Made by a program: the position numbers and the translations under genes
Origin: Anaerolineae bacterium
GTDB taxonomy: Bacteria > Chloroflexota > Anaerolineae > UBA1429
NCBI GenBank assembly: GCA_021162655.1
Contig: JAGGYI010000138.1
Span: 1 to 56,047 of the forward strand
Length of the DNA stretch: 56,047 bases
Direction: 5' to 3'
The notes under the pieces: generated by a model
Told to the model about the DNA's origin: nothing
What the model saw: only the letters and a program-made list of their open reading frames with translations
Database searches by the model: none
Shown: positions 7,314 through 31,425 of the stretch, one piece after another
Numbering within the stretch: the stretch's first letter is position 1
Layout: the number at the start of each line of letters is the position of its first letter

Positions 7314-7532
7314 AAGGCTCCATTCTGCAACATATGAACCGCTCTCCTTTGCATTATACGGACAAAGAGCGACAGTCCAAAGCGCCAATATACAGCAGCT
7401 CGGCACCTGCTAGATTCCCGGTCTCAAAAGACCCTGGCAGAGAGGCCGGTCTCGGAGAGAAGGAAATTCACCAGAGGCGAGGAAAGGTTTTTTGTCCTTC
7501 CGTGGGGGAGCTCACCCCTACGCTCTGCCATT

Positions 7533-7561
7533 TTGACAGCACCACCTTGCCCATGGATACT
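7533..7561 (+). promoter_or_regulatory. candidate sigma-70-type promoter for the HAD genes
   Basis: TTGACA (7533..7538), 17-nt spacer, GATACT (7556..7561). The -35 hexamer coincides with the TTG start used by the ORF track, which argues for the downstream ATG 7596 as the real start. Confidence 0.3.
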
Positions 7562-7595
7562 ATCGAGGCACATTGAATCCGCACAGGTGGAAGCT

Positions 7596-10005: not shown

Positions 10006-10030
10006 AGTGGCTCCCAGGGGAAGCTACCCT

Positions 10031-11402
<1,372 letters not shown>

Positions 11403-11470
11403 CATAGCAACCCTTTTCCCTTTCCCAGCGGCTCCCCGGCCAGAAGAAACCCCTACTGCTTTTTCTAATG

Positions 11471-13561
11471 CTACTTGAGAATGAGCCGCATGTCAACTGC
11501 GACGGCGCCCTTGCCCTCTTCACGCACAAGGAGGGGGTTGATATCAAGCTCCGCGATCTCGTCAAAGTCAACCACCAGCTGAGAAACGCGCAGAATCGTC
11601 TCCACTACAGCATCGATGTCAGCTGGGGGCTGCCCCCGCACACCTGTCAGCAGTTTATAGGAGCGAATCGATTCCACCATCTCACGGGCTTGTTCCCGCG
11701 ACATGGGAGCCACCCGGAAGGTGACGTCTTTGAGTACCTCTACATAAATGCCCCCCAAACCGAACATCATCAGTGGACCAAACTGAGGATCCCGGTTCAT
11801 CCCAATGATGATCTCACGGGCATCCGTGACCATCTCCTGAATCTGGCAACCCCAAATGGTTGCATCGGGGCGGTGGGCCCTAGCCCGCTCAACAAGAGTG
11901 GCAAAGCTCTGGCGCACCTCCTCCGCGTTCTTAACCCCTACGATGATGCCCCCCACGTCCGATTTGTGAAGAATGTCGGGCGAGGCGATTTTCATCACTA
12001 CAGGGTAGCCAATCTCTTCGCAATACGCCACGGCCTCCTCTGGGGTTGCAGCCACTTTGGACTGCGGAGTGGTGATGCCATAGGCTTTGAGAATCGTCTG
12101 CGCCTCCGCATCCCCAATAGAGTTGCGCCCCTCCTGACGCACCCTTTTCAAGAGCTCTGCCACAGCTTCTTTATCTACATCGAAAGCCTCGATGCGTGGT
12201 TCGGGCTGTTGCTTCCATAGCCAATACTTGTACATCGCTCCCAAAGCAGCCACTGCTCGCTCGGGGAAGGGATAGTTGGGCACGTGATTCTGGGCAAGCA
12301 CCTCGATCCCCGCCGAGACCTCCTTCTTGCCCATCCAGCAGGCCGTAATCGGCTTATCCGAAACTTTGCTGACCCTCACCAATGCCTCGGCCGTCTTGAC
12401 GATCTCGGTAGAGGTCTGCGGGGTGAGGATAATAAGCGCTCCATCAACCCCTGGATCGTGGAGGACCGTCTCCAGTGCCTTCTCGTAGCGATCGGCCCGG
12501 GCATCTCCCAGTACATCAACGGGGTTGTGAATATTCGCCGCAGGCGGCAAGGCACCCGCAAGCACTTGCTCCGTCTCAGGCTGAAGCTGAGCCAAAACCA
12601 GCCCATTGCGCTCCAGCGCATCTGTGGCCATCACGCCAGGGCCACCAGCGTTCGTCACAATGGCTATACGGTTCCCCTGGAGAAGAGGCTGATAGGCAAA
12701 AGCCGTCGAATAATCAAAGAGCTCCTGGACAGAATCTGCCCGCAACACCCCACTCTGGAGAAAGGCCGCATCATAGGCCGCATCAGAGCCCGCCAAGCTC
12801 CCCGTATGGGAAGAGACCGCCTTAGAGCCTGAAGCAGTACGCCCAGACTTGACTGCAACGATCGGTTTCTGGCGAGCCGTCTTGCGGGCCTGGCGAATGA
12901 ACTCAGCCCCATCTCGTAGGCCCTCAATATAGGCGATGATGACATCCGTATCGGGATCATCCCGCCAAGCCTCTAACAGCGATACCTCATCCACATCCGC
13001 CTTGTTGCCCAGGCTGACGAAATGAGAGAAACCGATATTCTCAGCCAAGGCATAATCCAGGATGGCGGTGCAAAGCGCTCCAGACTGAGACATAAAAGCA
13101 ATATTTCCCTTGGACGGGGTACCCGCTGCGAACGAGGCATTCATCGGCACAAGTGTATCGATAATTCCCAAACAGTTGGGCCCCACAATGCGCATGCCAT
13201 AGCGCCGAGCGATCTCAAGAAGCTGCTTCTCTCGCTCGGCCCCCTCAGCACCCGCCTCACGAAAGCCTGCCGAAATGATGATGGCTCCTTGGACTCCCTT
13301 CTGGCCGGCTTCTTCGAGGACAGAGGATACAAACTTGCTTGGAATGACCACAACAATAAGATCAAGTGCCCCAGGAATATCGAGAACGGAACGATAACAC
13401 TTGAGCCCCAGAATCTCCTCCGCCTTGGGATTCACAGGATAAAGCCGCCCTGGGAAACCGCTATCGATGAGGTTCGCCAAAATCGCATGGCCCAGCTTTT
13501 GAGGGTTCTCAGAGGCGCCGACGACGGCGATGGAGCGGGGGTTAAAGAACATATCCAACAT
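11471..13561 (-). CDS. acd: ADP-forming acetyl-CoA synthetase / NDP-forming acyl-CoA synthetase, fused alpha-beta
   Basis: CoA-binding N-terminus FNPRSIAVVGASENPQKLGH. Phosphohistidine loop AVSSHTGSLAGSD. C-terminal ATP-grasp domain (YPVVMKIASPDILHKSDVGG). ATG 13561 lies 6 nt after GGGAG; ATG 13567 and 13552 are alternative starts. Confidence 0.9.
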   Translation of the reverse strand: MLDMFFNPRSIAVVGASENPQKLGHAILANLIDSGFPGRLYPVNPKAEEILGLKCYRSVLDIPGALDLIVVVIPSKFVSSVLEEAGQKGVQGAIIISAGFREAGAEGAEREKQLLEIARRYGMRIVGPNCLGIIDTLVPMNASFAAGTPSKGNIAFMSQSGALCTAILDYALAENIGFSHFVSLGNKADVDEVSLLEAWRDDPDTDVIIAYIEGLRDGAEFIRQARKTARQKPIVAVKSGRTASGSKAVSSHTGSLAGSDAAYDAAFLQSGVLRADSVQELFDYSTAFAYQPLLQGNRIAIVTNAGGPGVMATDALERNGLVLAQLQPETEQVLAGALPPAANIHNPVDVLGDARADRYEKALETVLHDPGVDGALIILTPQTSTEIVKTAEALVRVSKVSDKPITACWMGKKEVSAGIEVLAQNHVPNYPFPERAVAALGAMYKYWLWKQQPEPRIEAFDVDKEAVAELLKRVRQEGRNSIGDAEAQTILKAYGITTPQSKVAATPEEAVAYCEEIGYPVVMKIASPDILHKSDVGGIIVGVKNAEEVRQSFATLVERARAHRPDATIWGCQIQEMVTDAREIIIGMNRDPQFGPLMMFGLGGIYVEVLKDVTFRVAPMSREQAREMVESIRSYKLLTGVRGQPPADIDAVVETILRVSQLVVDFDEIAELDINPLLVREEGKGAVAVDMRLILK

Positions 13562-13668
13562 AGCCATCTCCCTTGATGTGAAAATTTTCGAAGCTATCTT
13601 ACATCGAAAGAAAACAAAACGCAAATCCACTTTGTGAGATCTAGAACAAAGCTCCAAGCCCTAAAGAG

Positions 13669-13697
13669 TTGACACCGCCCAAGAGAGAGGATAACAT
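13669..13697 (+). promoter_or_regulatory. candidate promoter for the BioD-like/DRTGG gene
   Basis: TTGACA (13669..13674), 17-nt spacer, TAACAT (13692..13697), about 60 nt upstream of ATG 13760. Confidence 0.4.
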
Positions 13698-13759
13698 GTA
13701 AAATGTCAATTGATGGCAGGCTTGTTCAAGCCCCAGCGGCCGAGAGGAAGGAGCGATAG

Positions 13760-15019
13760 ATGAGGCCCCCGGCGTATCCCCCAACGGTTTTCGTCCTCGG
13801 CACCTCACGGAATATCGGCAAGACGGTGACCTGCATCGGGATCATCGCCAAACTCACCGCCCCAGAGAGCGGTTATACCGTTGACGATATCGGCTATATC
13901 AAGCCCGTGGGGCAACAAACCCTGACGGTGCTCAGCGGGGAGGGCGTTCCCATCGAGGCAGACAAAGACGCCGTACTCATCACCTCACTGATGAACATCC
14001 AGTGCCACGGTTATGAGAAAACCAGCCCCGTCGTCTGGCGAGGCGGGCTAACATCCAAATACATTGAGGAAGCCGCCCAAGGGGATCCTCTCGAGGGACG
14101 CCAGGAGTTCCTTGAGCGCATCCGCGAGGCCTATGAGCAAGTCGCCCTGGGGAAAAAGATCGTCATCGTAGAGGGCACAGGCCAGCCCGGGGTCGGCTCG
14201 GTGGCAGGGATCTCAAACGCCGATGTCATCAACACCCTGCGCGAGATGGGCGTGCCCCTTTTTGCCATCCTGGTGACGAGAGCGGGCATCGGCAGCACCA
14301 TCGACGAGGTCTTTCCTTACCTCATGGCCCTCGATCACCTAGGTACCCGCATCGATGGACTAATCATCAACGCCGTCATTCCGTCCAAAATGCACAAAGT
14401 GCGCCACTATCTGGAAACATACTATACCCAGGTTTTCCAGAGCCTCTATGGTCGCTACCTCAAGGTGCAGACCCCGCCTCAGATCCTGGGGTTCGTCCCC
14501 GAGATACCCGAGCTCGAACTACCCACCATGCGCCTCATCGTCGAATACTTTGCCAAAAAGCCCGAGAGCGCCATGGAGATCATTGCCCCTGAGGACTTTA
14601 CGGGCGCCTGTCGCCTTGTGCGCAACCTGAAGGTCATCAGCCTAGAGTTCGGCTATGAGCCCTTCCTTGAGCCAGGAGATGCCGTCATCGTGGGAGTGAA
14701 CGCGAATGACGTGATCCTAGCTGTACTCCTTATCCATGAACGCCTGCTGCGCAAGCATGGGCAAGGGCTCGCAGGGCTGATCCTCTCCTGTAAGCAAGTG
14801 GGCGAAGTCTCTCCTCAGATCCGTGAGCTTCTCCTGGCTGGCGATCTCCCCACCATCACCCTGAACTACGATTCGGCCGACATCGTCCAGCGGATCGAAA
14901 GCATGACCGTCAAGATTCAACCTTACGACGTCGGTAAGCGTGAGCTCATCTCTCGCGTCTACCGCCGGCACCTTACCCTCTGGCCAGAGCTTCAGCCAGC
15001 CAGCCAAGGTTCAGTCTGA
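13760..15019 (+). CDS. stand-alone phosphotransacetylase N-terminal-like protein (BioD-like P-loop + DRTGG domain, no PTA catalytic domain)
   Basis: P-loop VLGTSRNIGKTVTCIGI. VEGTGQPGVGS segment. C-terminal DRTGG-like segment (GDAVIVGVNANDVILAVLLI..GLAGLILS). The architecture matches the first ~350 aa of long E. coli-type Pta. Confidence 0.7.
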   Translation: MRPPAYPPTVFVLGTSRNIGKTVTCIGIIAKLTAPESGYTVDDIGYIKPVGQQTLTVLSGEGVPIEADKDAVLITSLMNIQCHGYEKTSPVVWRGGLTSKYIEEAAQGDPLEGRQEFLERIREAYEQVALGKKIVIVEGTGQPGVGSVAGISNADVINTLREMGVPLFAILVTRAGIGSTIDEVFPYLMALDHLGTRIDGLIINAVIPSKMHKVRHYLETYYTQVFQSLYGRYLKVQTPPQILGFVPEIPELELPTMRLIVEYFAKKPESAMEIIAPEDFTGACRLVRNLKVISLEFGYEPFLEPGDAVIVGVNANDVILAVLLIHERLLRKHGQGLAGLILSCKQVGEVSPQIRELLLAGDLPTITLNYDSADIVQRIESMTVKIQPYDVGKRELISRVYRRHLTLWPELQPASQGSV

Positions 15020-15140
15020 GGGTTCTCCCCCTTCCACTCCCTTTCCTCTACCTCTTTGGGGAGGAAAGTGCCCCTTTGACGCCCAGGGAAGAATGTGCTA
15101 AGATAATTCCGATTTTTTAGTGGGGATTTTTTTCACCAGC

Positions 15141-19669: not shown

Positions 19670-19993
19670 ATGGCAAGAGAAAAGAGCTCTGGCAATTTCC
19701 TGGTAGGGTTCGTCGTGGGTGCGTTTGTGGGTGCAGTCCTGGCTCTCCTCTTTGCTCCTGCTCCTGGAGAGGAGATCCGCAATCAGCTTCGCGAGAAGAG
19801 CATCGAGCTAAAAGACCGGGCCAGCGATCTCACTGCCAAAGGGCAGTCCTTCTTGGAAGAGCAAAAGGTCCGTTTCCAAGAGGCGATAGAAGAGGGCAAA
19901 CGCGCAGCCGCACGGAAAAAGGAGGAACTGCTGGCTCAACTAGAATCTGCCAAATCGGGCAAAGCCGCGGAATCGGCCGAAGAGGAAGCATAA
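19670..19993 (+). CDS. YtxH-domain protein
   Basis: Trimmed to ATG 19670, preceded by GAAGGAGG. MAREKSSGNFLVGFVVGAFVGAVLALLFAPAPGEEIR.. followed by a charged helical tail. Confidence 0.7.
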   Translation: MAREKSSGNFLVGFVVGAFVGAVLALLFAPAPGEEIRNQLREKSIELKDRASDLTAKGQSFLEEQKVRFQEAIEEGKRAAARKKEELLAQLESAKSGKAAESAEEEA

Positions 19994-20067: not shown

Positions 20068-21729
20068 TTACCTACGAAGCTGTTCAAGGGCTTTGGGGAG
20101 ATACTCGAGAAGTTCCCCCGCCAACATACCTACTGAACCACGCTCCTCCCGCCTGAGCTCACCAGCTAAACCATGGAGGAAAGCTCCACAGACGACCGCT
20201 TCATAGCTGGCAAGCCCTTGAGCCATCAAGCCCGCCACGGTTCCGGCAAGGACATCCCCCGTGCCGGCAGTAGCCAAGGTAGGATTCGCAAAGGGGATAA
20301 CCATAGTCCGGCCATCTGGCGAGGCGACAATGCTATAGGCCCCTTTGAGGAGCACCGTGCATCCCCACTTGACAGCTGCCTGCTGAGCCAAGTCCAGGCG
20401 ATCCCTCTGCACCTCCTGCACCTCACATCCCCAGAGCCGAGCCATCTCCCCAGGATGGGGCGTGAGCACACTATTCGCCGGCAGTCCCTCCCACCAACCC
20501 GAATCTTGGGCCAACAAGTTCAAGGCATCGGCATCGAGCACCAAGGGAGGCAGGGAAATCTCCTGGTCCTCAGGTTCCTCCTGGGGCACCTCAAAGCCCA
20601 CTCGCTTAGCCCCAGGCTTTTTCTCCCCGTGAACCAGAGCTCGGACAAACTCTCCCGTCTTGGGATCCTGCCCCAAACCTGGGCCCAAAAGGAGCACCTG
20701 ATAGCCCTCCACCCAATCAGCCAGCACCTTGATAGCTTCAGGGACCAAGGCGCCCAAATCGCTGGGGAGCACAACAAAGGTCGCCTCGGTGAGTTTAGCC
20801 GTCACCGAAGGATAGATCGGTTGGGGCACGGCCAAGGTTACCAAACCCGCCCCGCTACGATAGGCTGCCTCCGCTGCCAGGCAAGGAGCTCCTACATAGT
20901 TTGTCGAGCCCCCAACAACCAACACCTTGCCAAAAGTTCCCTTGTGAGCATCAATGGGGCGCGCTGGTAGCATCTTTGCGATCTCTTGAGCCGTGGCCAC
21001 CTCCAAGGTCTCTGGCACGAGGCGAGGATCGATGCCAATATCTGCCACGAGCAGCTCCCCCACCCAGCGCCCTCCGGGGAAGAGAAAGAGTCCCCGCTTG
21101 GGATAGGCAAAGGTCACGGTAAGATCTGCCGGCAAGGCCCGCTCATCTATCGTCCCCGTATCGCTATCCAGGCCCGAAGGCACATCCACCGCTACGATAA
21201 ATGGGCCCCGATCTCTTGCTCCCTGGCCCTCATAAAGGGTGTGAAGCACCTGTTTGCCCTCCCGTTGCACGCGCTCTCCAAGGGCTCGGCGGACCACTTT
21301 TAAAAGCTCCGGCAAGTCGCCTCGTAGTTCTCCCTTGGCTCCAGTGCCCAAAAGGGCATCTATCAAAATGTCGCAACGGCGCACGCGCTCCTCTAGCAAC
21401 TTCCAGCCCTCATCTTCCTCACTCCTAAAAATGGGGAGCCCCCTCTCCTGGACGCGAACGAGGTTGGGGTCCTCTTTGCGGGCACGCTTCCAAATATAGA
21501 TCACTACGTCAAAACCCCACTCGTGCAGATAGCGTGCCGCCACCAGGCCATCGCCTCCGTTGTTCCCTGGCCCCACCAACACAAGGGCCCATCCCCCTTT
21601 GGGGAAGCGCTCTTTGATCGCCAGGGCCACAGCACGCCCTGCGTTTTCCATCATCTCCGCATAGCTTAGGCCAGCTTCGTCCGCTGCCTTTTCCAGCTGG
21701 CGCATCTCGTCCACAGTAAGCAACTTCAT
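20068..21729 (-). CDS. nnr: bifunctional NAD(P)H-hydrate repair enzyme (epimerase + ADP-dependent dehydratase)
   Basis: YjeF-N segment (GPGNNGGDGLVAARYL) and a carbohydrate-kinase-like C-terminal domain (VVGGSTNYVGAPCLA..GTGDVLAG). Confidence 0.9.
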   Translation of the reverse strand: MKLLTVDEMRQLEKAADEAGLSYAEMMENAGRAVALAIKERFPKGGWALVLVGPGNNGGDGLVAARYLHEWGFDVVIYIWKRARKEDPNLVRVQERGLPIFRSEEDEGWKLLEERVRRCDILIDALLGTGAKGELRGDLPELLKVVRRALGERVQREGKQVLHTLYEGQGARDRGPFIVAVDVPSGLDSDTGTIDERALPADLTVTFAYPKRGLFLFPGGRWVGELLVADIGIDPRLVPETLEVATAQEIAKMLPARPIDAHKGTFGKVLVVGGSTNYVGAPCLAAEAAYRSGAGLVTLAVPQPIYPSVTAKLTEATFVVLPSDLGALVPEAIKVLADWVEGYQVLLLGPGLGQDPKTGEFVRALVHGEKKPGAKRVGFEVPQEEPEDQEISLPPLVLDADALNLLAQDSGWWEGLPANSVLTPHPGEMARLWGCEVQEVQRDRLDLAQQAAVKWGCTVLLKGAYSIVASPDGRTMVIPFANPTLATAGTGDVLAGTVAGLMAQGLASYEAVVCGAFLHGLAGELRREERGSVGMLAGELLEYLPKALEQLRR

Positions 21730-21856
21730 CTCTTCTTCCCTCCAAGCCAGCTATACTTGGGATTGTAGGATTCCTCCCTAGGCATGTCAAAGGATGGCTC
21801 CAAACGCAGGGCACACTCCCCATTGTCCAGCCCTCGCTCCAAGACCTAAAAGCAGC

Positions 21857-21885
21857 TTGCAGCACACGGACGGGCATGGTATACT
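21857..21885 (+). promoter_or_regulatory. candidate promoter of the eight-gene unknown operon
   Basis: TTGCAG (21857..21862), 17-nt spacer, TATACT (21880..21885) preceded by TGG (extended -10-like), 55 nt upstream of the first ORF. Confidence 0.45.
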
Positions 21886-21939
21886 GCTCTTCGCCTTGAA
21901 AAATATAGGAAAGCGCATCATAATCCGGAGAAGGAGCGC

Positions 21940-22857
21940 TTGAAAAGCTCGGCGAGTGTGCAAAAAGCAGTCCTTCAACAAAGGATCGCGGAAGGAGAAG
22001 AGATCCTCGCCCGTTGCCAGGAGATCGCTTCTTTAGCTCAGGGCAAACTAGAAGATGCTATCCCTCGACTCGTTGATTTTCTCGGCGCAGGGGACCCCCT
22101 CGTCCGTCGAGAAGCTAGCGAGGCACTCGCCCTGTTAGCCAAGCGCACGCAGAGGCATAGTCACTTGGGGCTAAGAGCCCCCACGATAGGATGCGAAGAG
22201 CTTCTGGCTCTTTTACAAAAGAATCTACAGGCAAAGGAGGCCCATCGGCGAGCTGCGACGGCGGATACCTTGGGGCTCTGGGGCTATGAACCAGCGATAC
22301 CGTTGCTCCTGGAGGCCCTACAGGAGCAAGATCCCAGCGTGCGGGCAAGTGCAGCTACAGCCCTGGGGCAGATGCGCGCTCTAGAGGCTACAAAGCCTCT
22401 CCTTGCCCTCTTGGAAGACCCCTCGCCCTGGGTTCGCCTTGCTGCCGCCGAGGCCTTGGGGCAGATAGGAGCAGAAAAAGCCACGGCCGACTTGGCAAAG
22501 CTTCTTCAAGATGCACACCCAGCTGTTCGCCTAAAAGCAGCGCTTGCCTTGGGCCACTCTTCGACAGGCAAGGCCCGTCGAATCCTGGAGAATTGTGCCC
22601 TCGGGCCAGACCCCGCTCTGCGTTGGGCTGCAGCCAAGGGCTTGGCAACAGTAGGGGATGCAGGCTCCCTGCCCATTTTGGAAGACCTCGTAGACGAGCA
22701 GGAGGCCTTTTTCGCCCAACCCACAGGCCAGCTGGCCCAGAGGGCCATTCGGGCTATCCGCGCCAAGGAAGAAGGCTTTTGGGGCTGGTTACATAGGTTG
22801 CTGGCCAGCATTGCTCACTGGCTACGCAAAAGACGAGGAATCTCTGGCGATGAATGA
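21940..22857 (+). CDS. HEAT-repeat protein (PBS-lyase-type HEAT repeats)
   Basis: At least five repeats of the form DPxVRxxAAxALGxxG (DPLVRREASEALALL, PSVRASAATALGQM, SPWVRLAAAEALGQIG, HPAVRLKAALALG, DPALRWAAAKGLATVG). The TTG start is uncertain. Confidence 0.75.
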   Translation: MKSSASVQKAVLQQRIAEGEEILARCQEIASLAQGKLEDAIPRLVDFLGAGDPLVRREASEALALLAKRTQRHSHLGLRAPTIGCEELLALLQKNLQAKEAHRRAATADTLGLWGYEPAIPLLLEALQEQDPSVRASAATALGQMRALEATKPLLALLEDPSPWVRLAAAEALGQIGAEKATADLAKLLQDAHPAVRLKAALALGHSSTGKARRILENCALGPDPALRWAAAKGLATVGDAGSLPILEDLVDEQEAFFAQPTGQLAQRAIRAIRAKEEGFWGWLHRLLASIAHWLRKRRGISGDE

Positions 22858-23134
22858 GAATCCCTGGGAAAGCCAATTGGACGATCCCTTGAGAGAGGCT
22901 GCTGAGGTAATCGTCAAGGGAGGTTTTGCCACTCCTGCGCTCTTTTTGCTTGAACTCTTTAAACCGCTGGGCTTTCTCACCAGCCAACTTCTCCTTTTAA
23001 CAGAGCCACTCTTTGGTCCGGAAAGGGGAACCAATATCCGGCGCTACGCCACGCTTCTGGAGAACAGGGAACAAACAGAGGAATTCATCCGCATGCTGGA
23101 ACGCGGGCGCCCTGGCCCACACACGCGGGAGTAA
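22850..23134 (+). CDS. hypothetical 94-aa protein (operon member 2)
   Basis: The ATG overlaps the HEAT gene stop by 8 nt. One hydrophobic segment (ALFLLELFKPLGFLTSQLLLL). No recognised motif. Confidence 0.45.
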   Translation: MNENPWESQLDDPLREAAEVIVKGGFATPALFLLELFKPLGFLTSQLLLLTEPLFGPERGTNIRRYATLLENREQTEEFIRMLERGRPGPHTRE

Positions 23135-23138
23135 ACAG

Positions 23139-23909
23139 ATGGAAAACGTCTTGCTCGTCACACAAAAGATCGATCTAGGGGCTTGGATTGTACTCCTGAT
23201 CTTTGTCCCTTTTTTCATCCTCTTTACCCTCCGAGCCAAAAGTGGGGCTCGCTTCCCACTGCGTCCCATCGCCGCTTACAAGCGGCTTTGTGAACTTGTG
23301 AGCCAAGCGGCAGAGAGCGGCCATGTTATCCACGTAGGAATGGGGTCCGGAGGCATCGGCACCCCTGCCACCCCCGAAGCGTTGATGGGGCTAACCGTCT
23401 TTGGCTATATCGCTCGCCAAGCCGCCCAGTACAACCAAGCTACCTTGGGCACCACAGGCGATCCAACCATCCTCACAGCCGCTCAGGGGATCCTTCAGCG
23501 GGCGCGGGCCGAGGCAGGCTTCCCCGAGCAGTACAGTCGCCGGGAGCTTCAATTCTACGGTCCTCATCCATTCGCTTATGCAGTGGGGGCTTTCGACTCT
23601 CTGCGCGCCCGGCCTTACCTGGCCAACGTGCTCCTCGGACACTTTGGAGCTGAAGGACTCTGGCTGGCCGAAGCGACAAGTTCCAAAGAGATGAGCCGCC
23701 TAGGAGGAGTAGCCCCTCCTACGGCAGCAGCGCTTATGCAGAGCTCCCTAGACGAGACGGTCATTGGCGAAGAAGTCTTTGCAGCGGGAGCCTACCTTGA
23801 TAAACCCAGCCATCTGGGCAGTCTAGCCTCGCAAGACTTGATGCGGATCATCATCATCCTAACCATTCTTGTGGGGTCCATTTTGACCTCCTTGGGATAC
23901 CTAGGATAG
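23139..23909 (+). CDS. hypothetical membrane-anchored protein, N- and C-terminal TM helices (operon member 3)
   Basis: ATG 23139 lies 4 nt after the previous stop. TM helices at both ends flank a ~190-aa soluble domain. Confidence 0.5.
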   Translation: MENVLLVTQKIDLGAWIVLLIFVPFFILFTLRAKSGARFPLRPIAAYKRLCELVSQAAESGHVIHVGMGSGGIGTPATPEALMGLTVFGYIARQAAQYNQATLGTTGDPTILTAAQGILQRARAEAGFPEQYSRRELQFYGPHPFAYAVGAFDSLRARPYLANVLLGHFGAEGLWLAEATSSKEMSRLGGVAPPTAAALMQSSLDETVIGEEVFAAGAYLDKPSHLGSLASQDLMRIIIILTILVGSILTSLGYLG

Positions 23910-23918
23910 GGAGGAGCG

Positions 23919-24530
23919 ATGAAAAAGACTCTGCCTCTCATCGTCGCCATCCTCTGTGGAGTGTTATCTCTCGCGGACTTTATCATCCCCAATCCACAAC
24001 TTGATGCCCTCGGGGCAGTGCTCGTGGAAGGAGTCACCATCCTTGCTGCCTTTGCCCTCCTGCTTGGGCTCTTGAACATCCTAGGTACCCATGTTCATCG
24101 AGTGGCTACAGGGGAAGGCAGCCGCGGGCTGAGCCTCTCCCTCATCTTGGCAATGCTCATCACGATGGCCGTAGGTATCGCCTTTCCCCATTCGGGAACA
24201 CTCCGCTGGATATTCCGCTACCTCTATGTGCCCCTGCAATCGACAATGACCGCACTGCTGGCCTTTTTTGTCGTCAGCGCCGCATATCGAGCCTTCCGCC
24301 TACGCAACATCGAGGCTTTGATTCTGCTCGTCACCAGCCTACTCGTTCTCTTTACCCAGCTCCCCTTCGTTGGGGCCATCTCCCCCTCTCTCGCCATCAT
24401 CAGAGATTGGCTGATGCGTGTACCTGTCACGGCAGCGACCCGCGGGCTCATCCTGGGGATCGCTTTGGGGACCATTGCCACCTCGCTGCGGATTCTTTTG
24501 GCAGTGGATCGGCCCTACACAGGGGAATAG
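23919..24530 (+). CDS. hypothetical polytopic membrane protein (operon member 4)
   Basis: GGGAGGAG RBS. About 5-6 hydrophobic helices over 203 aa. Confidence 0.55.
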   Translation: MKKTLPLIVAILCGVLSLADFIIPNPQLDALGAVLVEGVTILAAFALLLGLLNILGTHVHRVATGEGSRGLSLSLILAMLITMAVGIAFPHSGTLRWIFRYLYVPLQSTMTALLAFFVVSAAYRAFRLRNIEALILLVTSLLVLFTQLPFVGAISPSLAIIRDWLMRVPVTAATRGLILGIALGTIATSLRILLAVDRPYTGE

Positions 24531-24543
24531 GAGCTAGCACGAG

Positions 24544-25914
24544 ATGATCGTCTGCCCAGTATGCCAGCACCGAAATCCAGAAGGGGCCAAGACCTGTGAG
24601 GCCTGTGGCGCCTCGTTGGAGGGCTTCTTTTATCGGGCCTGCCCCGTCTGTGGGGCATTGAACCCAGCCGAAGCCGTCTTCTGCCGGCGCTGCCTAGCCG
24701 AACTCATCCCTAGCGAAGCGCCAGAGGAACCGCTTCCTCCAACAGAAGCAGAGGCTCCCTCGGAGGAGACGGCCTCTACTGCCCCTCCCACCGAGAAAGA
24801 GGAAACCCCCGAGACTACGGAGGAAGAGATAACAGAAGAACCTTCTGTGGAAGAAGAAATCCTTCCAAAGCCAGAACATCCTCCTGTACCCGTTCCTAAC
24901 CCTCTGGAGGGCTTGGAGGAACTGCTCCCGCTGGAGGCTGCTGTGGCACTGCCCCATCGCGCTGAGCCACGCCAAGTGCACTTTCCCGATGAAACAGAAC
25001 GTCGCGACGCCGAGCTTTTCCAGCAGATTGCCACCGAGCCGGCCCCTCTCCGTGAGCAGGCTCGCGTGCTTGGCACCCCAAGGACAAGGGCTCTCTCCCC
25101 TATAGGAAGGCTCATCCTCTACATTCTCGTCTTACTTATCGCCATCGTTCCTTATTTTAGCGGTGGCTTTACCGCCTCTTGGATCACTCCCCGAGAGGAC
25201 GTCACCACTTTACTCCAATCACTGAATAGTCTTCCCCAAGGAGCCACAGTACTCCTCGCCTTTGACTATGATCCCGCTTATGCTGGAGAGATGAACCCTC
25301 TAGCTCTGGATATAACCCGGCAGCTGGCCCAGCGCTCCGTACACATTGTAGCTCTGAGCACTCAACCAGCTGGCATTGGCCTTGCGGAACAGGTCCTGCG
25401 GCAACTTTCTGACCAAGTTCCCGCCTACCGCTATGGACAAAGCTATGCCATTTTGGGGTATCTCCCAGGGCAAGAAGCAGGCCTGCGCACCTTGAACAGC
25501 TCTCTCGGCGATGCGTTTAAAGAGGACTATTTACAACGGCGCTCCCTCGGCGAACTGCCCGTCACCAGAGGGCTCGCCACCTTGGCAGATTTTGAGCAGA
25601 TCATCCTTTTTGCGGACGATGAGACCACCGTCCGCCGCTGGATCGAGCAGATCCAAAGCCGCAATCCCGAGATACCCCTCCACGCCCTCGTGACGGCCCG
25701 CATTGCGCCTATGCTCGTTCCCTACCGCCAGTCGGGCCAGCTGAGCACCCTTCTCCCCGGAACACCCGGGGCCATCGAACTCGAAGCAGCCATGGGGCGT
25801 CGCTCGTTCCTCACCTGGACGAGTGACGCTTATACTGCCCTCTTTTTCTCTCTTTTGTTCATCGCCGTCATCAGCAATGTGCTTTACCTGAGCTCAACCC
25901 GGCGGGTCCGGTAA
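24544..25914 (+). CDS. double zinc-ribbon membrane protein with acidic Pro/Glu-rich linker (operon member 5)
   Basis: CPVCQHRNPEGAKTCEACG and CPVCGALNPAEAVFCRRC near the N-terminus. ~90-aa E/P/T-rich linker, then a TM helix (LILYILVLLIAIV), a ~230-aa domain and a C-terminal TM helix. Confidence 0.65.
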   Translation: MIVCPVCQHRNPEGAKTCEACGASLEGFFYRACPVCGALNPAEAVFCRRCLAELIPSEAPEEPLPPTEAEAPSEETASTAPPTEKEETPETTEEEITEEPSVEEEILPKPEHPPVPVPNPLEGLEELLPLEAAVALPHRAEPRQVHFPDETERRDAELFQQIATEPAPLREQARVLGTPRTRALSPIGRLILYILVLLIAIVPYFSGGFTASWITPREDVTTLLQSLNSLPQGATVLLAFDYDPAYAGEMNPLALDITRQLAQRSVHIVALSTQPAGIGLAEQVLRQLSDQVPAYRYGQSYAILGYLPGQEAGLRTLNSSLGDAFKEDYLQRRSLGELPVTRGLATLADFEQIILFADDETTVRRWIEQIQSRNPEIPLHALVTARIAPMLVPYRQSGQLSTLLPGTPGAIELEAAMGRRSFLTWTSDAYTALFFSLLFIAVISNVLYLSSTRRVR

Positions 25915-25948
25915 GGAACCCCGTCGGTAGGCCGAGTCGGGAGGACCT

Positions 25949-26674
25949 ATGCTAGAGACTCTGGCAAACGTGATGAATGCACTGCCGGCAGGCACAGCCA
26001 GCACTATAGGTACTTGGGTCGCTGCACTCCTCACCCTAGCGGTGCTGAGTTTCATCTTTGGCGAGAACCCCGCTTTTCGCCTAGCCGAATATCTCTTTGT
26101 AGGAATCGCTGCCGGCTATGCTGGAGCCCTCGCCTGGACCCAAGTTCTCTGGCCAAGGGCAAAACTCTTTTTGGCTAACCCTCAGGCCTATTGGTATTAC
26201 GGGCTCTTTTTTGCACTGGGGCTGCTTCTCCTAACCAGAGGGGTCCGTTCACTATCTACCTTGGGCAATCTGCCTCTGGGAGTGCTCTTTGGCACTGGGG
26301 CCGGGCTAGCCTTGGGCGGCGCCTTGACAGGCTCCCTGGTACCTCAAATTGAGGCCTCTGTCGTCTCCCTCTCCCCAGCAGACTATGGGCAAGGCCTTGT
26401 AGGCTGGGCCTATGCCATCGATGCCTTTATCCTTCTCATAGGGACCATCGCCGTGCTGAGTGCCTTCCACTTTACCGGCAAAGGTCAAGGGGCCTGGAGC
26501 GGCTTTTGGCACGGCCTTCTCCGTATCCTACAGGGCGCCGGAAGAGGCTTTATCATGGTTGCCTTTGGCGCCCTTCTGGCTGGAGCAACACTCAGCTTTT
26601 TCGCTGCTCTACAGAGTCGGCTCGCCTTCCTCCTTCGAGATTGGATCAAGCTCTTTGGGAACATGGGGTTATAG
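25949..26674 (+). CDS. hypothetical polytopic membrane protein (operon member 6)
   Basis: GGGAGG RBS. About 6 hydrophobic helices, Gly/Ala-rich. Confidence 0.55.
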   Translation: MLETLANVMNALPAGTASTIGTWVAALLTLAVLSFIFGENPAFRLAEYLFVGIAAGYAGALAWTQVLWPRAKLFLANPQAYWYYGLFFALGLLLLTRGVRSLSTLGNLPLGVLFGTGAGLALGGALTGSLVPQIEASVVSLSPADYGQGLVGWAYAIDAFILLIGTIAVLSAFHFTGKGQGAWSGFWHGLLRILQGAGRGFIMVAFGALLAGATLSFFAALQSRLAFLLRDWIKLFGNMGL

Positions 26675-26677
26675 CGC

Positions 26678-28453
26678 ATGAGCGACGACAACAAACCCAT
26701 CGAATCGGCCCTCGTAGCAGACATTGGGAGTACCCTTACCCACGTCTGCCTAATCGACCAGGTAGAGGGAATATACCGCCTGATCGCCTGTGCCTCTGCT
26801 CCTACTACTGCATATGGAGCAGAGGGAGATATCACCATCGGGCTGCGCCGTGCTATTGAAAAGATTGAACGCATCGCCCAGCGTCCCCTTTTGAACCGCG
26901 AAGGAGAACCCATTTCCCCGGAGCAGGATACAGGGGAAGGGACAGACATCTTCTTAGCCACCTCTAGCGCTGCCCCGCCACTGGAATGCATCATTGTGGG
27001 GCTCACCAACGACCTCAGCATTCAGAGTGCCCAGCGGGCCTGTGCCACCGCCAATGCCATAGTGACGCATACTATCGCTCTAGGAGCTCGCGGACGCCGC
27101 TGGGATAAAAAGACTCTTGCCCTCCTCCACCAAAGTCCTCCAGATGTCATCCTCATGGTGGGCGGGGTAGATACCGGGCCCACCGCTCCACTAGAAAGCG
27201 CCGCACGGGTATTGGCCAACATCTACGAAGACATTAATCCCGAACAGCGCCCGGTGATTGTCTTTGCTGGCAACCAAGAAGCCCGCCGCCCCGTCGCGGC
27301 CATTCTAGGAGAGGGATTTGACCTTCGGGTGGTTGACAATGTGCGCCCTAACGCCCACATCGAAAGCCCAGGGGAATTGCAGCGTGAGCTCTCGGACCTC
27401 TATTCACAGAACAAGCTTGCCACCCTCCCCGGATACCGACGGCTGCGCCGCTGGTGCAGTTCTGCCATCCTCTCCTCCAGTGAAGCTTTGAGCATTACCC
27501 TGCGCTTTATCGCTCGGCGCAACAAGCTCCCACAAGGAGTGCTGGGGATCGACGTGGGAGGAAACACTACTTATGTAGGGGCCGCCCGGAGTGAGATGTA
27601 TCAATGGGCAACTAGCCCCAACATGGGCACAAGCTATGGGTTGAGGCATGTCGTTAAGGAATCAGGCTTACGCGACATCCGCCGTTGGTTGCCTTTCCCC
27701 ATGCAGACGCGAGAGCTCGTCTCTTACCTAGAAAACGCTTCCCTACGCCCCCAGGGCGTTCCCCAGACGATGGAGGATCTCCTGATCCTCCATGCCCTCG
27801 CTCGCCAAGCCCTCCTCTTGACCATGCGCCGCATCCGGGGGCAGTTCTGGGTAGGAGAAGACGCCCTCATGAGAACCACGCCTCCCTTTGACCTGCTTGC
27901 CGCCCGAGGGGGGCTCCTTTCCCACACCGTCCAAGACGGCCTCACCGTCCTCACCATCCTGGACGCTGCTCAACCCACAGGGTTGATCCGCCTGGTGATC
28001 GACTGGGCCTCACTCTGGCCCCAGCTGGGTGCACTGGCCCAAGTTGCCCCCCTAGCCGCCGCCCAAGTACTTGAGCGCGACGGCTTCCGCGAGCTTGGCA
28101 CTATCATCGCCCCCATCGGCGAGGCCCGCGATGGGGACCGCGCCCTCCACCTCCGCATCATCCGTCAGGATGGACAAGTAACAGAGGCTGACATCCCTGC
28201 GGGCACGATCCGCCGCTTCCCCTTGGGGCTGAACGAGCAGGCTACGGTGGAGGTCAGGCCCAGCCGCCACTTTGATATCGGCCTCGGCCGCAAGGGATTA
28301 GGAGGAAAAGCCCAGGTTCGCGGGGGTAGCCTGGGGATCATCATCGACACACGGGGGCGGCCGTTAGGGCTACCCCAAGACGCTCGGCGCCGCCGCGCCA
28401 AGCTACAAGAATGGTTAGGGAGCTTGATCCATGACGACAACAGCTCCTCGTGA
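26678..28453 (+). CDS. GlmL/MutL-like actin-fold (ASKHA) ATPase-type protein (operon member 7)
   Basis: Phosphate-1-like LVADIGSTLTHV. LMVGGVDTG segment. Second-lobe GIDVGGNTTYV. The pattern recalls the glutamate mutase accessory protein family (Pfam MutL/GlmL, from memory), with an extra ~130-aa C-terminal region. Confidence 0.6.
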   Translation: MSDDNKPIESALVADIGSTLTHVCLIDQVEGIYRLIACASAPTTAYGAEGDITIGLRRAIEKIERIAQRPLLNREGEPISPEQDTGEGTDIFLATSSAAPPLECIIVGLTNDLSIQSAQRACATANAIVTHTIALGARGRRWDKKTLALLHQSPPDVILMVGGVDTGPTAPLESAARVLANIYEDINPEQRPVIVFAGNQEARRPVAAILGEGFDLRVVDNVRPNAHIESPGELQRELSDLYSQNKLATLPGYRRLRRWCSSAILSSSEALSITLRFIARRNKLPQGVLGIDVGGNTTYVGAARSEMYQWATSPNMGTSYGLRHVVKESGLRDIRRWLPFPMQTRELVSYLENASLRPQGVPQTMEDLLILHALARQALLLTMRRIRGQFWVGEDALMRTTPPFDLLAARGGLLSHTVQDGLTVLTILDAAQPTGLIRLVIDWASLWPQLGALAQVAPLAAAQVLERDGFRELGTIIAPIGEARDGDRALHLRIIRQDGQVTEADIPAGTIRRFPLGLNEQATVEVRPSRHFDIGLGRKGLGGKAQVRGGSLGIIIDTRGRPLGLPQDARRRRAKLQEWLGSLIHDDNSSS

Positions 28454-29549
28454 GACCTTTTTCTCACCCTCAAGCGAAATCGTCCGCCGGCGCCTCCTCC
28501 CCATCCCAGGGGAGGTGCTGGTACACGTAGGGGATCGAGTTCAAGCAGATGACATCGTCGCCAAAACAAAGCTCCCAGGAGGGCTTCATGTCATCGACCT
28601 TGCCCAAGCCCTCAAAGTAAGCGTCCACAAAGTGCGCCGCTACGTCTGCGTCCAAGAGGGTCAAGAGATCGCCAAAGGCGACCTCCTCGCGGCTATCCGC
28701 TACTTGGGCCTCACCCGACGAGCAGTCAGGGCCCCCTTTGCCGGCACAGTGCAAAGGGTGGATGAAGGTTATCTCTTTTTGCGCCGGCACCCGCAAAACT
28801 ATCTGCTCCGAGCTTACCTCCCTGGACGGGTCATCGAAGAATATCCCCACCAGGGGGTCGCCATTCGTACTATCGGAGCCCTCATCCGAGGTATCTGGGG
28901 AAGCGGTGGCGAAACCCAGGGCATCCTTGTCACCATGGTCGATGGTCCAAACAAGCCGCTTACCTGGCGCCAGGTGAGCCTACGCTACCGAGGCACCATC
29001 CTAGTGGGAGGCACCTTGGCAGATCCACGAGTGCTCTTGCGTGCGCGGCAGTTTCATCTTCACGGACTCGTCCTGGGGAGCATCGCGCCTCAACTGCGCT
29101 CTCTGTGTGAGCGCATCTCCCTTCCCGTCATCGTCACCGAAGGAATGGGATACATTCCCATGGCTGAACCCATCTTTGCGCTGCTTCGCTCCCTCCACGG
29201 GCACATCGCTGTTCTCTCAGGCAGAGGGGAAGGGCAAGACAATGGCCCAGAGCTCATCATCCCCCTGCCCTCCCAGGAAGCCAGCGAAGAAAAAAGCCCC
29301 GCCTGGGAGAAGGGAGTTCTCGTGCGCATCACCCGGCCGCCCTTCCTTGGCTTGGTGGGAGAGATCGTCTCCCTACCTCCAGCACCGCAGGAGACGAGCA
29401 TCGGTATCGAGGCTGAGGGAGCGGAGGTACGCCTCCCCGATGGGCGAAGATTGTTCGTACCCTTTGTCAACCTGGAGCTCTTGGGCAAAGCGCCTTCCCA
29501 AGAGAAATCTCCCCCGCCCTCTCCCACAAACACCTCGGCGGATAGGTAA
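28431..29549 (+). CDS. hypothetical protein with N-terminal barrel-sandwich-hybrid (lipoyl/HlyD-like) fold signature (operon member 8)
   Basis: The ATG has AGGGAG 8 nt upstream and overlaps the previous gene by 23 nt. Segments GEVLVHVGDRVQADDIVAK..VQEGQEIAKGDLLAA..VRAPFAGTVQRVD resemble biotinyl/lipoyl-like hybrid motifs. No attachment lysine motif was recognised. Confidence 0.45.
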   Translation: MTTTAPRETFFSPSSEIVRRRLLPIPGEVLVHVGDRVQADDIVAKTKLPGGLHVIDLAQALKVSVHKVRRYVCVQEGQEIAKGDLLAAIRYLGLTRRAVRAPFAGTVQRVDEGYLFLRRHPQNYLLRAYLPGRVIEEYPHQGVAIRTIGALIRGIWGSGGETQGILVTMVDGPNKPLTWRQVSLRYRGTILVGGTLADPRVLLRARQFHLHGLVLGSIAPQLRSLCERISLPVIVTEGMGYIPMAEPIFALLRSLHGHIAVLSGRGEGQDNGPELIIPLPSQEASEEKSPAWEKGVLVRITRPPFLGLVGEIVSLPPAPQETSIGIEAEGAEVRLPDGRRLFVPFVNLELLGKAPSQEKSPPPSPTNTSADR

Positions 29550-29589
29550 AGGGGACACCCCTTCCCCATTTGGCACCCCTTTTTGTCGG

Positions 29590-29598
29590 TGATATAAT
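29590..29598 (+). promoter_or_regulatory. extended -10 element upstream of gatC
   Basis: TGATATAAT (TGn + TATAAT) lies 40 nt upstream of the gatC ATG. No good -35 hexamer. Confidence 0.3.
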
Positions 29599-29637
29599 GC
29601 CCTTGCCCATGCCAGGGTAGAGGAGGTATCTCTGCAA

Positions 29638-29925
29638 ATGAAGTTGAGTAGAGATCAAGTATTACACATCGCTGAGCTGGCCAAGCTGGCCCTCAGTGAA
29701 GAGGAAATCGAGCTCTTTACCGAACAGCTCTCTGAGATCCTCGCCTATTTCGAAAAATTGAACCGCCTAGATACGAGCGCTATTCCCCCAACGGCTCAAG
29801 TTATCGATATGCGAAACGTCACCCGTCCTGATGAGGTACGTCCCTCCCTCTCGCCTGAGGAGGCTTTGGCCAACGCCCCCCAACGCAAAGGGAACTTTTT
29901 CAAGGTCAAGCCTATCCTCGAGTGA
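29638..29925 (+). CDS. gatC: Asp-tRNA(Asn)/Glu-tRNA(Gln) amidotransferase subunit C
   Basis: 95 aa. MKLSRDQVLHIAELAKLALSEEEIELFTEQLSEILAYFEKLNRLDT.. is a canonical GatC. Confidence 0.9.
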   Translation: MKLSRDQVLHIAELAKLALSEEEIELFTEQLSEILAYFEKLNRLDTSAIPPTAQVIDMRNVTRPDEVRPSLSPEEALANAPQRKGNFFKVKPILE

Positions 29926-29970
29926 GCACCCAAGGACGGATTGTAACGCAAAACACGGGAGGCAAGAGAC

Positions 29971-31425
29971 TTGGAACTATATGAGCTCACCATTGCCCAG
30001 GCTCACGAACTTTTGCAGAAAAGAGAGATCTCTTCTGTTGAGCTGACACGATCGGTGCTTCAGCGCATCGAGACGGTAGAGACCAAAATCAAAGCTTACC
30101 TCCGAATCACCCCTGAGGAAGCCCTAGCGCAAGCCGAGAAGGCCGACCAGCGACGGGCCCAAGGCGAGGACAATCCTCTCTTGGGCATCCCTTTGGCCAT
30201 TAAGGATGTGCTCTGCACCAAAGGAGTAGAGACCACCTGTGGCTCACGCATTCTCCAAGGGTTCGTCCCCCCCTTTGACGCCACTGTGGTTGCCAAGCTC
30301 CGCGAGCTAGGCAGTGTCCTCCTGGGGAAGACAAACACTGACGAGTTCGCCATGGGCTCTTCCACCGAAAACTCGGGCTTTTTCACCACCCACAACCCAT
30401 GGAACCTGGAACATGTCCCCGGAGGCTCTAGTGGAGGCAGCGCGGCCGCCGTTGCAGCCGATGAATGCCTCGGTGCCCTGGGAACCGATACAGGAGGAAG
30501 CATTCGGCAACCAGCAGCCTTTTGCGGCATCGCTGGGCTCAAGCCTACCTATGGGCGCGTCTCGCGATATGGGCTGGTGGCCTTTGCCTCCTCACTAGAT
30601 CAAGCTGGCCCTCTCTGCAAAGATGTAAAGGACTGCGCTATTCTGCTCCAGGCCATCGCTGGGCACGATCCCAAAGATTCCACTTCGGCCAACTTATCTG
30701 TACCTAACTTTGTGGAAGCCCTTCAGCCAGACGTTAAAGGAATGCGCTTGGGCGTGCCCAAGGAATACTTTACCGAGGGCATAGACGCTAAGGTGGCAGA
30801 AGCGGTACATGCGGCTCTCGACGTCTGGGCAGAGCTAGGCGCAGAGATCGTCGAAGTTTCCTTGCCTCACACCGAGTACGCCCTCCCTGTGTACTATATC
30901 ATCGCCCCAGCAGAGGCTTCAGCCAACCTGGCTCGCTATGATGGCGTGCGCTATGGCTATTCCTACCCAGAAGCAAAGGACATCTGGGACGCCTATCGCA
31001 AGACGAGAGAAATTGGCTTTGGCGCCGAGGTAAAGCGTCGCATCATGCTGGGCACCTATGCTCTCTCGGCCGGGTATTACGATGCCTATTATCTCAAGGC
31101 CCAAAAGGTACGCACCCTCATCAAAGAGGATTTCGATCGGGCTTACCAGCAATGCGATGCCATCATCGCCCCTACAACTCCCATGCCAGCCTTTCGCATT
31201 GGCGAGCGGGTTGACGATCCATTACAAATGTACCTTGGAGATATCTTTACCCTCTCCCTCAACCTGGCGGGGGTATGCGGCATTTCCATCCCCTGTGGCT
31301 TTGCCGATGGGCTGCCCGTTGGGGTACAGATCCTCGGAGATGCCTATGATGAAACCACCATTTTACGCGTAGCCTACGCCTATGAACAGGCCACCGAGTG
31401 GCATCTACAAAAGCCCCCGCTCTGA
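29971..31425 (+). CDS. gatA: Asp-tRNA(Asn)/Glu-tRNA(Gln) amidotransferase subunit A
   Basis: Amidase signature [32 protein letters not shown] start with GGGAGG 8 nt upstream. Confidence 0.95.

Follow-up and report, generated by a model that had tools for sequence, protein, structure and literature searches.

We analyzed a stretch of 56,047 nucleotides (nt) from an Anaerolineae bacterium of the phylum Chloroflexota (assembly GCA_021162655.1, contig JAGGYI010000138.1), hereafter called the window, and in it a run of eight genes, g1 to g8, located between nnr and gatCA. Seven of these genes, g2 to g8, apparently encode one multi-protein system, conserved and widespread, that was previously undescribed. 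Judging from searches of sequences, profiles and predicted structures, no member of the system reaches a characterised family, although the fold of its ATPase is itself familiar. An earlier reading of the window, made from the letters alone (the sequence-only reading), had proposed a system of eight genes. The comparison of genomes does reveal a conserved unit, but of seven genes: the HEAT-repeat gene g1 accompanies it in about a dozen related loci and must be set apart. Beyond Chloroflexota, the system occurs in other lineages as well.

The sequence-only reading could not assign the cluster to any described system, and neither could we: Pfam, NCBIfam, PADLOC, the Protein Data Bank (PDB) and Foldseek gave only generic folds or domains of unknown function (DUF). 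More precisely, Pfam, NCBIfam and PADLOC, run on all eight proteins, returned HEAT, DUF6754, DZR and MutL and nothing else. The defence models of PADLOC gave generic HEAT matches for g1 only and none for g2-g8. Sequence and profile searches of g2-g8 against the PDB revealed KOW and barrel-sandwich signals, for g8 only. In the literature, where few subscription journals were covered, we found no description of the system, of DUF6754, of PF13941 or of the cluster.

Conservation and gene linkage

To collect relatives of g7, one genome per GTDB species was scanned. This resulted in at least 574 loci, of which 80, at 33-62% identity, were kept. Nearly all of them (79/80) match g7 almost over its full length, to residue ~580; the exception, L051, lies on a truncated contig and covers residues 194-583. 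Orthologues of g2-g8 were called by iterative hidden Markov models (HMMs) on all open reading frames (ORFs) of the loci. Each gene has orthologues inside the cluster in dozens of genomes, except that g1 has them in about a dozen loci. Among the 33 Chloroflexota loci with enough flanking sequence, 26 carry all of g2-g8 in the order of the window. Most of the other seven lack one to three genes, and one of them, from Chloroflexia (L079), has a zinc ribbon-g7 fusion and g8 only. Truncated contigs have partial gene sets, as expected. In L003 the cluster is intact and the flanking genes are different.

The order of the genes changes in more distant loci while the set remains together. Eisenbacteria (L062, L092) have g2-g7-g8-g3-g4-g5-g6, as does a metagenome contig without taxonomic assignment (L086), and L044 has g3-g4-g5-g6-g7'-g8'-g2-g7-g8. 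The persistence of the g2-g8 set through rearrangement is a classic signature of functional linkage. The same association was found in a reverse test based on the g3 profile, where all three distant DUF6754 proteins (31-35% identity) were in clusters with a MutL gene. The sequence-only reading had named a scattering of the genes in relatives as what would speak against it; instead, synteny is strongly conserved in the loci found with g7 as in those found with g3. Full seven-gene sets are also present in genomes labelled Acidobacteriota (L031, in Chloroflexota order) and Clostridiales (L044), labels that may result from mis-binning or horizontal transfer.

Some of the proteins are joined physically. 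A protein of 995 amino acids (aa), P0311, is a natural g7-g8 fusion with 32% identity to g7 over 594 aligned positions and the g8 part at residues 623-993. The Chloroflexia fusion mentioned above has 821 aa and consists of a double zinc ribbon and a linker rich in proline and glutamate followed by g7; its locus is without g3, g4, and g6. In L091 (13754-18157), g7 has only 535 aa and ends just before its RGRP loop and terminal helix (see below); g8 is absent and an RHS-repeat protein is found instead. This single case suggests that the region of the RGRP loop and the terminal helix of g7 contacts g8.

Several groups have only a part of the system. Armatimonadota have g7 alone or g7-g8, and Poribacteria have g7 or g2-g7, in both cases without the membrane module formed by g3-g6. 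Within Armatimonadota, Chthonomonadales have a conserved bitopic protein of ~230 aa, without Pfam family, between g7 and g8 (L040:11874-12566, L045:11672-12349, L072:10492-11232). The unassigned locus L089 has the order g7a-g8a-g2-g7b-g8b (8107-15104) and no membrane module within 10 kilobases. A tandem duplication of the pair is also found in L044, where it spans 6216-12977 with g2 in between and where both g7 copies keep the ATP motifs. In three metagenome-assembled genomes (MAGs) labelled Methanomethylicia or Culexarchaeia, g7-g8 are preceded by a conserved protein with two transmembrane (TM) helices. The membrane proteins beside g7-g8 in the archaeal-labelled and Chthonomonadales loci are small and unrelated ones. 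The ancient core of the system is g7 with g8, often together with g2, and g3-g6 are an add-on of Chloroflexota, Eisenbacteria, and a small number of lineages that are unassigned. Comparing core-only with full loci, the units of the system are g2, g7-g8, and g3-g4-g5-g6.

The ATP-binding protein g7

The gene g7 (26678-28453, + strand) encodes a core component of 591 aa. The sequence-only reading had seen in it a GlmL/MutL-like protein of the ASKHA fold, which is well supported: it matches the Pfam family MutL (PF13941, MutL/GlmL) with 232 bits for a threshold of 27 (E 1e-68), over residues 12-467 and positions 2-448 of the 450 of the model. In its AlphaFold2 (AF2) model, which has a predicted local distance difference test score (pLDDT) of 91.5 and a predicted TM-score (pTM) of 0.90, one sees an ASKHA core, an alpha/beta insert of the bridging kind at ~157-260, a C-terminal beta domain with seven strands at 471-557, and a helix at the end. 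The ATP motifs DxGSTxT[K/H], DxGGxT, and GxGG and a C-terminal D-x-R-G-R-P loop are invariant across phyla. The phosphate-1, phosphate-2, and adenosine motifs are kept in all lineages, including in both copies of the duplicated pairs. To judge from these motifs, the nucleotide site is intact.

In databases, g7 is annotated as 'glutamate mutase L' and the rest of the cluster as hypothetical proteins. If the annotation was correct, g7 would be a plain GlmL, i.e., a reactivating or accessory protein of a B12-dependent mutase, and the other genes would be unrelated neighbours. GlmL and Or-4, which assist glutamate mutase and D-ornithine aminomutase as accessory proteins, do share with g7 the family PF13941, the ASKHA core, and a GG(V/T)DGG / AGN insert, and the swivel-like domain of g8 (see below) presumably resembles the swivelling domain of diol-dehydratase reactivase. 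However, g7 has ~120 additional conserved C-terminal residues, which make up the beta domain, the RGRP loop, and the terminal helix, and the glm and ora operons lack g8, g2, and g3-g6. The scores of g7 are far below the NCBIfam cut-offs for GlmL (NF040745, 94.8 bits for a cut-off of 475, residues 12-305 only) and for Or-4 (NF040744, 96.7 bits for a cut-off of 600), and both assignments were rejected. Authentic GlmL are only 23-26% identical to g7, with an alignment of their full length to g7 residues 6-470. Their operons have the order glmS-glmL-glmE-mal, and tblastn searches detected no GlmS, GlmE, or Mal, and hence no mutase or methylaspartase gene, in the window (best E 0.23) or in 92 loci. 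The genes that do surround g7 are conserved and even fused to it. We give hardly any credence to the view of g7 as a plain GlmL. The plasmid-borne relatives of g7 are all authentic GlmL.

When the model of g7 was compared with the PDB using Foldseek, the best E-values were those of N-methylhydantoinase, acetophenone carboxylase, and acetone carboxylase (E 1e-10), and the next matches were sugar kinases, PilM, FtsA, and Hsp70. There was no whole-chain close relative, since TM-scores were at most 0.45. The top matches are alpha subunits of the hydantoinase-A type (Apc-alpha, acetone carboxylase, N-methylhydantoinase), and they have the same order of modules as g7: in Apc-alpha, an ASKHA fold, a bridging alpha/beta domain, and a C-terminal beta-barrel-like domain (PMC5214803). 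They differ from g7 by TM-scores of about 0.3 and by a motif DxGGTxDDT in place of DxGSTxTK. The Pfam families Hydantoinase_A and Hydant_A_N have no match in the g7 of the window and weak ones in its relatives, and no locus has a HyuB-like gene.

The partner g8

The gene g8 (28431-29549, + strand) encodes a soluble protein of 372 aa, the second core component and the partner of g7. It has no Pfam family above threshold, and its AF2 model (pLDDT 92.4) has three domains. The N-terminal one is all-beta, of the barrel-sandwich-hybrid type, with weak RnfC_N, biotinyl, and RNAP-SBHM signals. These sub-threshold matches and the model agree with the sequence-only reading, which had pointed out segments resembling barrel-sandwich hybrids. 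The middle domain is beta-alpha-beta and matches AF_0055/UPF0107, RraA-like, and PA-domain structures in Foldseek, all of which we take to be swivelling beta/beta/alpha folds. The C-terminal domain appears to be KOW/SH3-like: it matches the KOW domain of Spt5 in profile searches against the PDB (E 5e-5) and KOW structures in Foldseek (target-normalised TM-score, TMt, up to 0.85), whereas Pfam KOW stays below its threshold in the orthologue P0266 (16.2 bits for a threshold of 22.3). Foldseek searches of g8 against the PDB and BFVD gave matches at the domain level only and no whole-chain relative. The invariant positions are Gly, Ala, Arg, and Asn, and there are no conserved His, Cys, Ser, or Lys. 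Without conserved Lys, His, and Cys, g8 is expected to carry no biotin, lipoyl, or phospho group. The family is large, with 3,900 representatives of clusters at 50% identity matched by the g8 profile at E <= 1e-3; at the stricter E <= 1e-30 there are still 1,315, or about 1,300 clusters.

Two known proteins resemble parts of g8. One is RnfC/NqrA, by its N-terminal barrel-sandwich hybrid and by sub-threshold RnfC_N/NqrA_N matches in several orthologues. The other is Thermotoga maritima NusG (2xhc, domain II and KOW), the top Foldseek match of g8, by the KOW-like C-terminus. Yet, g8 lacks the NGN domain, the flavin/Fe-S modules, and the biotin/lipoyl lysine, and the whole-chain TM-score is 0.15. 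A redox pump of the Rnf/Nqr type was considered, given the RnfC_N-like domain of g8, two proteins of ~200 aa with six TM helices, and one with an outer domain (see below for these), and rejected: the orthologues of g4 and g6 have no Rnf-Nqr matches, no homology exists between g4 and g6, and cofactor motifs are lacking. We also discarded a profile match of g8 to the CW_7 repeat of Cpl-7 (5i8l, E 6e-7), in which the Gly-rich stretch is a beta-strand in the model and the score is inflated by the three repeats of the target.

Given these two proteins, the cluster could be a metabolic operon, with g7-g8 as an enzyme that uses ATP to modify a small molecule, for instance a lactam or a compound derived from peptides, in the manner of a kinase, a hydrolase, or a ligase. 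In that case g3-g6 would provide novel uptake or export of the compound, or g7 would phosphorylate a lipid embedded in the membrane. The top Foldseek matches of g7 and the module order shared with Apc-alpha fit such an operon, but no catalytic partner like HyuB or Apc-beta is present, g8 has adaptor-type domains without conserved residues of a catalytic type, and the TM-scores of g7 to the carboxylases are low. The occurrence of g7-g8 without membrane genes, and in duplicated pairs that recall Apc alpha/alpha', is also in line with an enzyme; the fusion of a zinc ribbon to g7 would be unusual in one. Peptide-related neighbours exist, namely DppA-like proteins in L044, L054, and L063, Opp genes in L087 and L092, and peptidases S58 and C26 with alanine racemase in L089. 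However, none of the metabolic neighbours is recurrent over the whole set of about 90 loci, and g3-g6 match no transporter family. On the whole, we regard a metabolic operon as unlikely, while giving it real weight.

The membrane module, g2, and g1

The small core component g2 (22850-23134, + strand, 94 aa) has a conserved motif, PAIxFLExxKPLxFLGSQ...QP, in a borderline-hydrophobic helical hairpin, and zero matches in Pfam or the PDB. Using an in-house HMM, we found it in 36 loci. It adjoins g7 in Poribacteria, Eisenbacteria, L059, and L086, and in L044 and L089 it separates the two copies of the g7-g8 pair.

The four membrane proteins have two (g3), about six (g4), two (g5), and about six (g6) predicted TM helices. 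The first, g3 (23139-23909, + strand, 256 aa), is a DUF6754 protein (PF20539, E 3e-37, 128.5 bits for a gathering threshold of 27). It had been described in the sequence-only reading as bitopic with a soluble domain of ~190 aa. The domain is there, with ~205 aa, but the protein is not strictly bitopic, since it has one TM helix at each end (13-31 and 237-255). Its conserved residues are E59, H65, E172, E211, and D233. The DUF6754 domain is predicted to be cytoplasmic, because basic residues come after the first TM helix and because, in the orthologue P0445 from Eisenbacteria, this helix is preceded by a signal peptide and an FN3 domain.

The proteins g4 (23919-24530, + strand, 203 aa) and g6 (25949-26674, + strand, 241 aa) are both polytopic, as anticipated from the sequence alone. 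The former has conserved Arg-rich loops and a C-terminal DRPY motif, the latter ~5-6 TM helices that are rich in Gly. No relative of either was found in Pfam or the PDB, even when 32-34 orthologues were scanned singly. The protein g5 (24544-25914, + strand, 456 aa) has the zinc ribbon, acidic linker, and two TM helices that had been read from its sequence. A double zinc ribbon (aa 1-54, DZR match) precedes an acidic and Pro-rich linker of ~125 aa (55-180), a TM helix (184-202), a domain of 223 aa, and a second TM helix (426-444). The ribbon is predicted to be cytoplasmic and the 223-aa domain extracytoplasmic. DZR is present in 15 of the 25 orthologues, and the versions of Eisenbacteria and L044 are without the ribbon. 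Pfam scans of the orthologues matched zinc ribbons only, and PDB profile searches revealed no relative of the outer domain either. Comparisons of g3 with g5 and of g4 with g6 by hhalign were not significant. Hence, there is no paralogy among the components, which rules out a design of duplicated pairs and an RnfA/E-like pair.

An ASKHA protein with bitopic and small polytopic membrane partners is also what characterises PilM-PilN-PilO, FtsA-FtsN, and MreB-RodZ-MreC/D, and PilM and FtsA are significant Foldseek matches of g7, at the level of the fold only. One may thus imagine a cytoskeletal or divisome-like system, in which g7 would polymerise on the membrane and organise wall synthesis or division in filamentous Chloroflexota, with g5 as a tether like RodZ or FtsN and g4 and g6 as MreD-like proteins. 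The architecture of g5, a small cytoplasmic domain, a long linker, a TM helix, and an outer domain, presumably parallels that of RodZ, ZipA, and FtsN, and the system is very common in Anaerolineae, in a housekeeping neighbourhood. However, no partner is similar to those of the known systems by sequence or profile, the eight proteins have no Pfam match to PilM_2, PilN, or PilO, and pilins, PilB/C, FtsZ-binding features, and mre genes are all lacking. In addition, g7 belongs to another ASKHA branch, that of hydantoinases and GlmL, which is not known to polymerise, and actin-like filaments have nothing that corresponds to its large alpha/beta insert and its beta domain. The core also occurs in non-filamentous lineages and archaeal-labelled MAGs, and fts, mre, or mur genes are not consistently linked to it (only L001 and L004 have FtsK and MurC in the vicinity). 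A cytoskeletal role is therefore, in our view, improbable.

The remaining gene, g1 (21940-22857, + strand), encodes a HEAT/PBS-lyase-type repeat protein of 305 aa that is predicted to be soluble. The HEAT repeats seen in the sequence-only reading were recovered by Pfam (HEAT_2, E 2.6e-35). Its orthologues are found directly 5' of g2 only in L004-L009, L012, L014-L016, and L030, and by this distribution g1 is a clade-specific accessory, a lineage-specific addition to the system.

A possible mechanism and its significance

We propose that the system works as a cytoplasmic switch, driven by ATP, that is docked on a membrane module and probably acts on the cell envelope, an interpretation that we find plausible but put forward tentatively. 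In this model, g7 and g8 would form an ATP-cycling complex that docks on the cytoplasmic face of g3-g6, with the zinc-ribbon tail of g5, the small g2, and the DUF6754 domain of g3 as points of contact. A change in g4, g6, and the outer domain of g5 would then be coupled to the cytoplasmic nucleotide state. The working logic would be like that of PilM-PilN/O, FtsA-FtsN, and MreB-RodZ-MreC/D, without homologous partners, and the field of action would most probably be the assembly and maintenance of the cell envelope or membrane. A membrane-embedded machine had already been suggested by the composition of the cluster. The fusions and the topology are consistent with it, and the idea keeps its conjectural character; soluble g7-g8 also exist without membrane proteins.

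Several observations weigh against such a switch. ATP-dependent hydantoinase and carboxylase alpha subunits are small-molecule kinases (PMC5214803), and since these are the closest structural neighbours of g7, they favour an enzymatic function. PilM and FtsA match g7 with low TM-scores (0.3-0.45), and in g3-g6 no fold or motif can be recognised that would reveal an output. The core is found without the membrane module in archaeal-labelled MAGs, L089, and L079, which suggests that the membrane is not essential to its activity. Finally, the neighbours that hint at an envelope role, namely the surface protein with a sortase-type signal encoded after g8 in 15 loci, PspA in 8 loci (see below for both), and the membrane proteins beside g7-g8 in the archaeal-labelled and Chthonomonadales loci, are all restricted to certain lineages.

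If the proposed switch exists, it might represent a new class of cell machine, in which an ASKHA protein of the GlmL/hydantoinase branch and a partner made of barrel-sandwich-hybrid, swivel, and KOW domains power or gate a membrane complex whose four subunits all belong to novel protein families. We consider this possible, and somewhat more doubtful than the switch itself. To our knowledge, this ASKHA branch has no structural or mechanical role, and the system could thus reveal a new use of the actin/Hsp70/sugar-kinase fold. Chloroflexota, Anaerolineae above all, are abundant members of sediment, sludge, and subsurface communities, and little is known of their cell biology. The presence of a seven-gene system in most of the sampled Anaerolineae-type loci suggests a basic cell function that is missed by current annotation, and its recognition would correct the systematic misannotation as 'glutamate mutase L'. 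If the labels of the MAGs hold, the soluble core is common to several bacterial phyla and to the archaea Methanomethylicia and Culexarchaeia. The fusions and the modular architecture point to concrete pairs of proteins.

Neighbouring genes

In 15 Chloroflexota loci a ninth gene lies directly 3' of g8 (L047:5030-5587, L003:12924-13430, L056:12550-13269, L057:12928-14028, and 11 further loci). Its product combines an acidic N-terminal tail with a conserved NRxF motif, one TM helix, a region rich in Thr and Pro, and a sorting signal of the sortase type, [VI]PxTG-hydrophobic-RRLR. Judged by sequence motifs, the one of L057 has a putative insert of the fasciclin type. Such an association would be expected if the cluster encoded a dedicated machine for the export or anchoring of this Thr/Pro-rich surface protein, the more so as Sec signal peptides do not typically have a long acidic N-terminus. 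However, we searched the window for a Thr/Pro-rich protein with a sortase signal and did not find it, and the gene is missing from most loci and from all the systems outside Chloroflexota. Furthermore, no family of secretion ATPases or channels is detectable. A dedicated export machine is thus very improbable, and the ATP-driven switch remains the interpretation that we prefer.

A few genes 3' of g8, a gene for PspA/IM30 is found in 8 Chloroflexota loci and one for an AAA_16 and Trans_reg_C protein (458 aa) in 7 loci; the segments with such genes are L003:13484-15655, L056:13302-16575, L079:13134-15452, and those of 5 further loci. The PspA proteins have 66-88% identity among themselves, so that the association may reflect no more than synteny within a clade. 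In all three loci labelled as archaeal, g7-g8 are followed by a gene resembling PLP-dependent decarboxylases (L063:13057-15184, L054:12319-14437, L078:9441-10730), which is preceded in L063 and L054 by one resembling the D-aminopeptidase DppA; both assignments are based on motifs and unconfirmed by Pfam. The product of a gene just 5' of the cluster in L044 (695-1498) is 52% identical to the DppA-like protein of L063. Genes of oligopeptide ABC transporters (SBP_bac_5, permeases, oligo_HPY ATPases) flank the cluster in L087 (1-3615, 12652-14602) and L092 (8232-14183), possibly by chance.

Organisation of the locus in the window

The eight ORFs are intact and co-directional between nnr and gatCA, with the coordinates and strand given in the sequence-only reading, and our recomputed distances between them, -8, +4, +9, +13, +34, +3, and -23 nt, are exactly those it reported. 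They are followed by +88 nt to gatC. The reading's mention of clear Shine-Dalgarno sequences at most starts also holds: motifs of the GGAGG or GGGAG type precede g1, g2, g3, g4, g5, g6, and g8 (7 of the 8 genes), and a weak one precedes g7. Two promoter-like sites were found, both on the + strand and both by match to the consensus only. The one 5' of g1 (21896-21924) is TTGAAA-17-CATAAT, with 10/12 positions of a sigma-70-like consensus. The one between g8 and gatC (29570-29598) is TTGGCA-17-TG-TATAAT, with 11/12 positions, and is the probable start of the next transcription unit, on the gatC side. In the region 21500-30100 we counted 8 terminator-like matches for 8.3 expected from shuffled sequences, a single one being on the coding strand within the cluster (26578-26597, inside g6). 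No tRNA genes and no Rfam families, including riboswitches, were found at the gathering threshold across the window (1-56047).

The cluster is preceded by nnr (YjeF_N and Carb_kinase domains), and gatC, gatA, and genes for an NTP-transferase and alanine dehydrogenase are also among its flanks. The codon-position GC is the same in the cluster and the flanking genes and the GC profile is flat, so that nothing in the composition suggests a mobile island. A gene at 19670-19993 (+ strand), 5' of nnr, encodes a YtxH-like protein and looks unrelated to the cluster.

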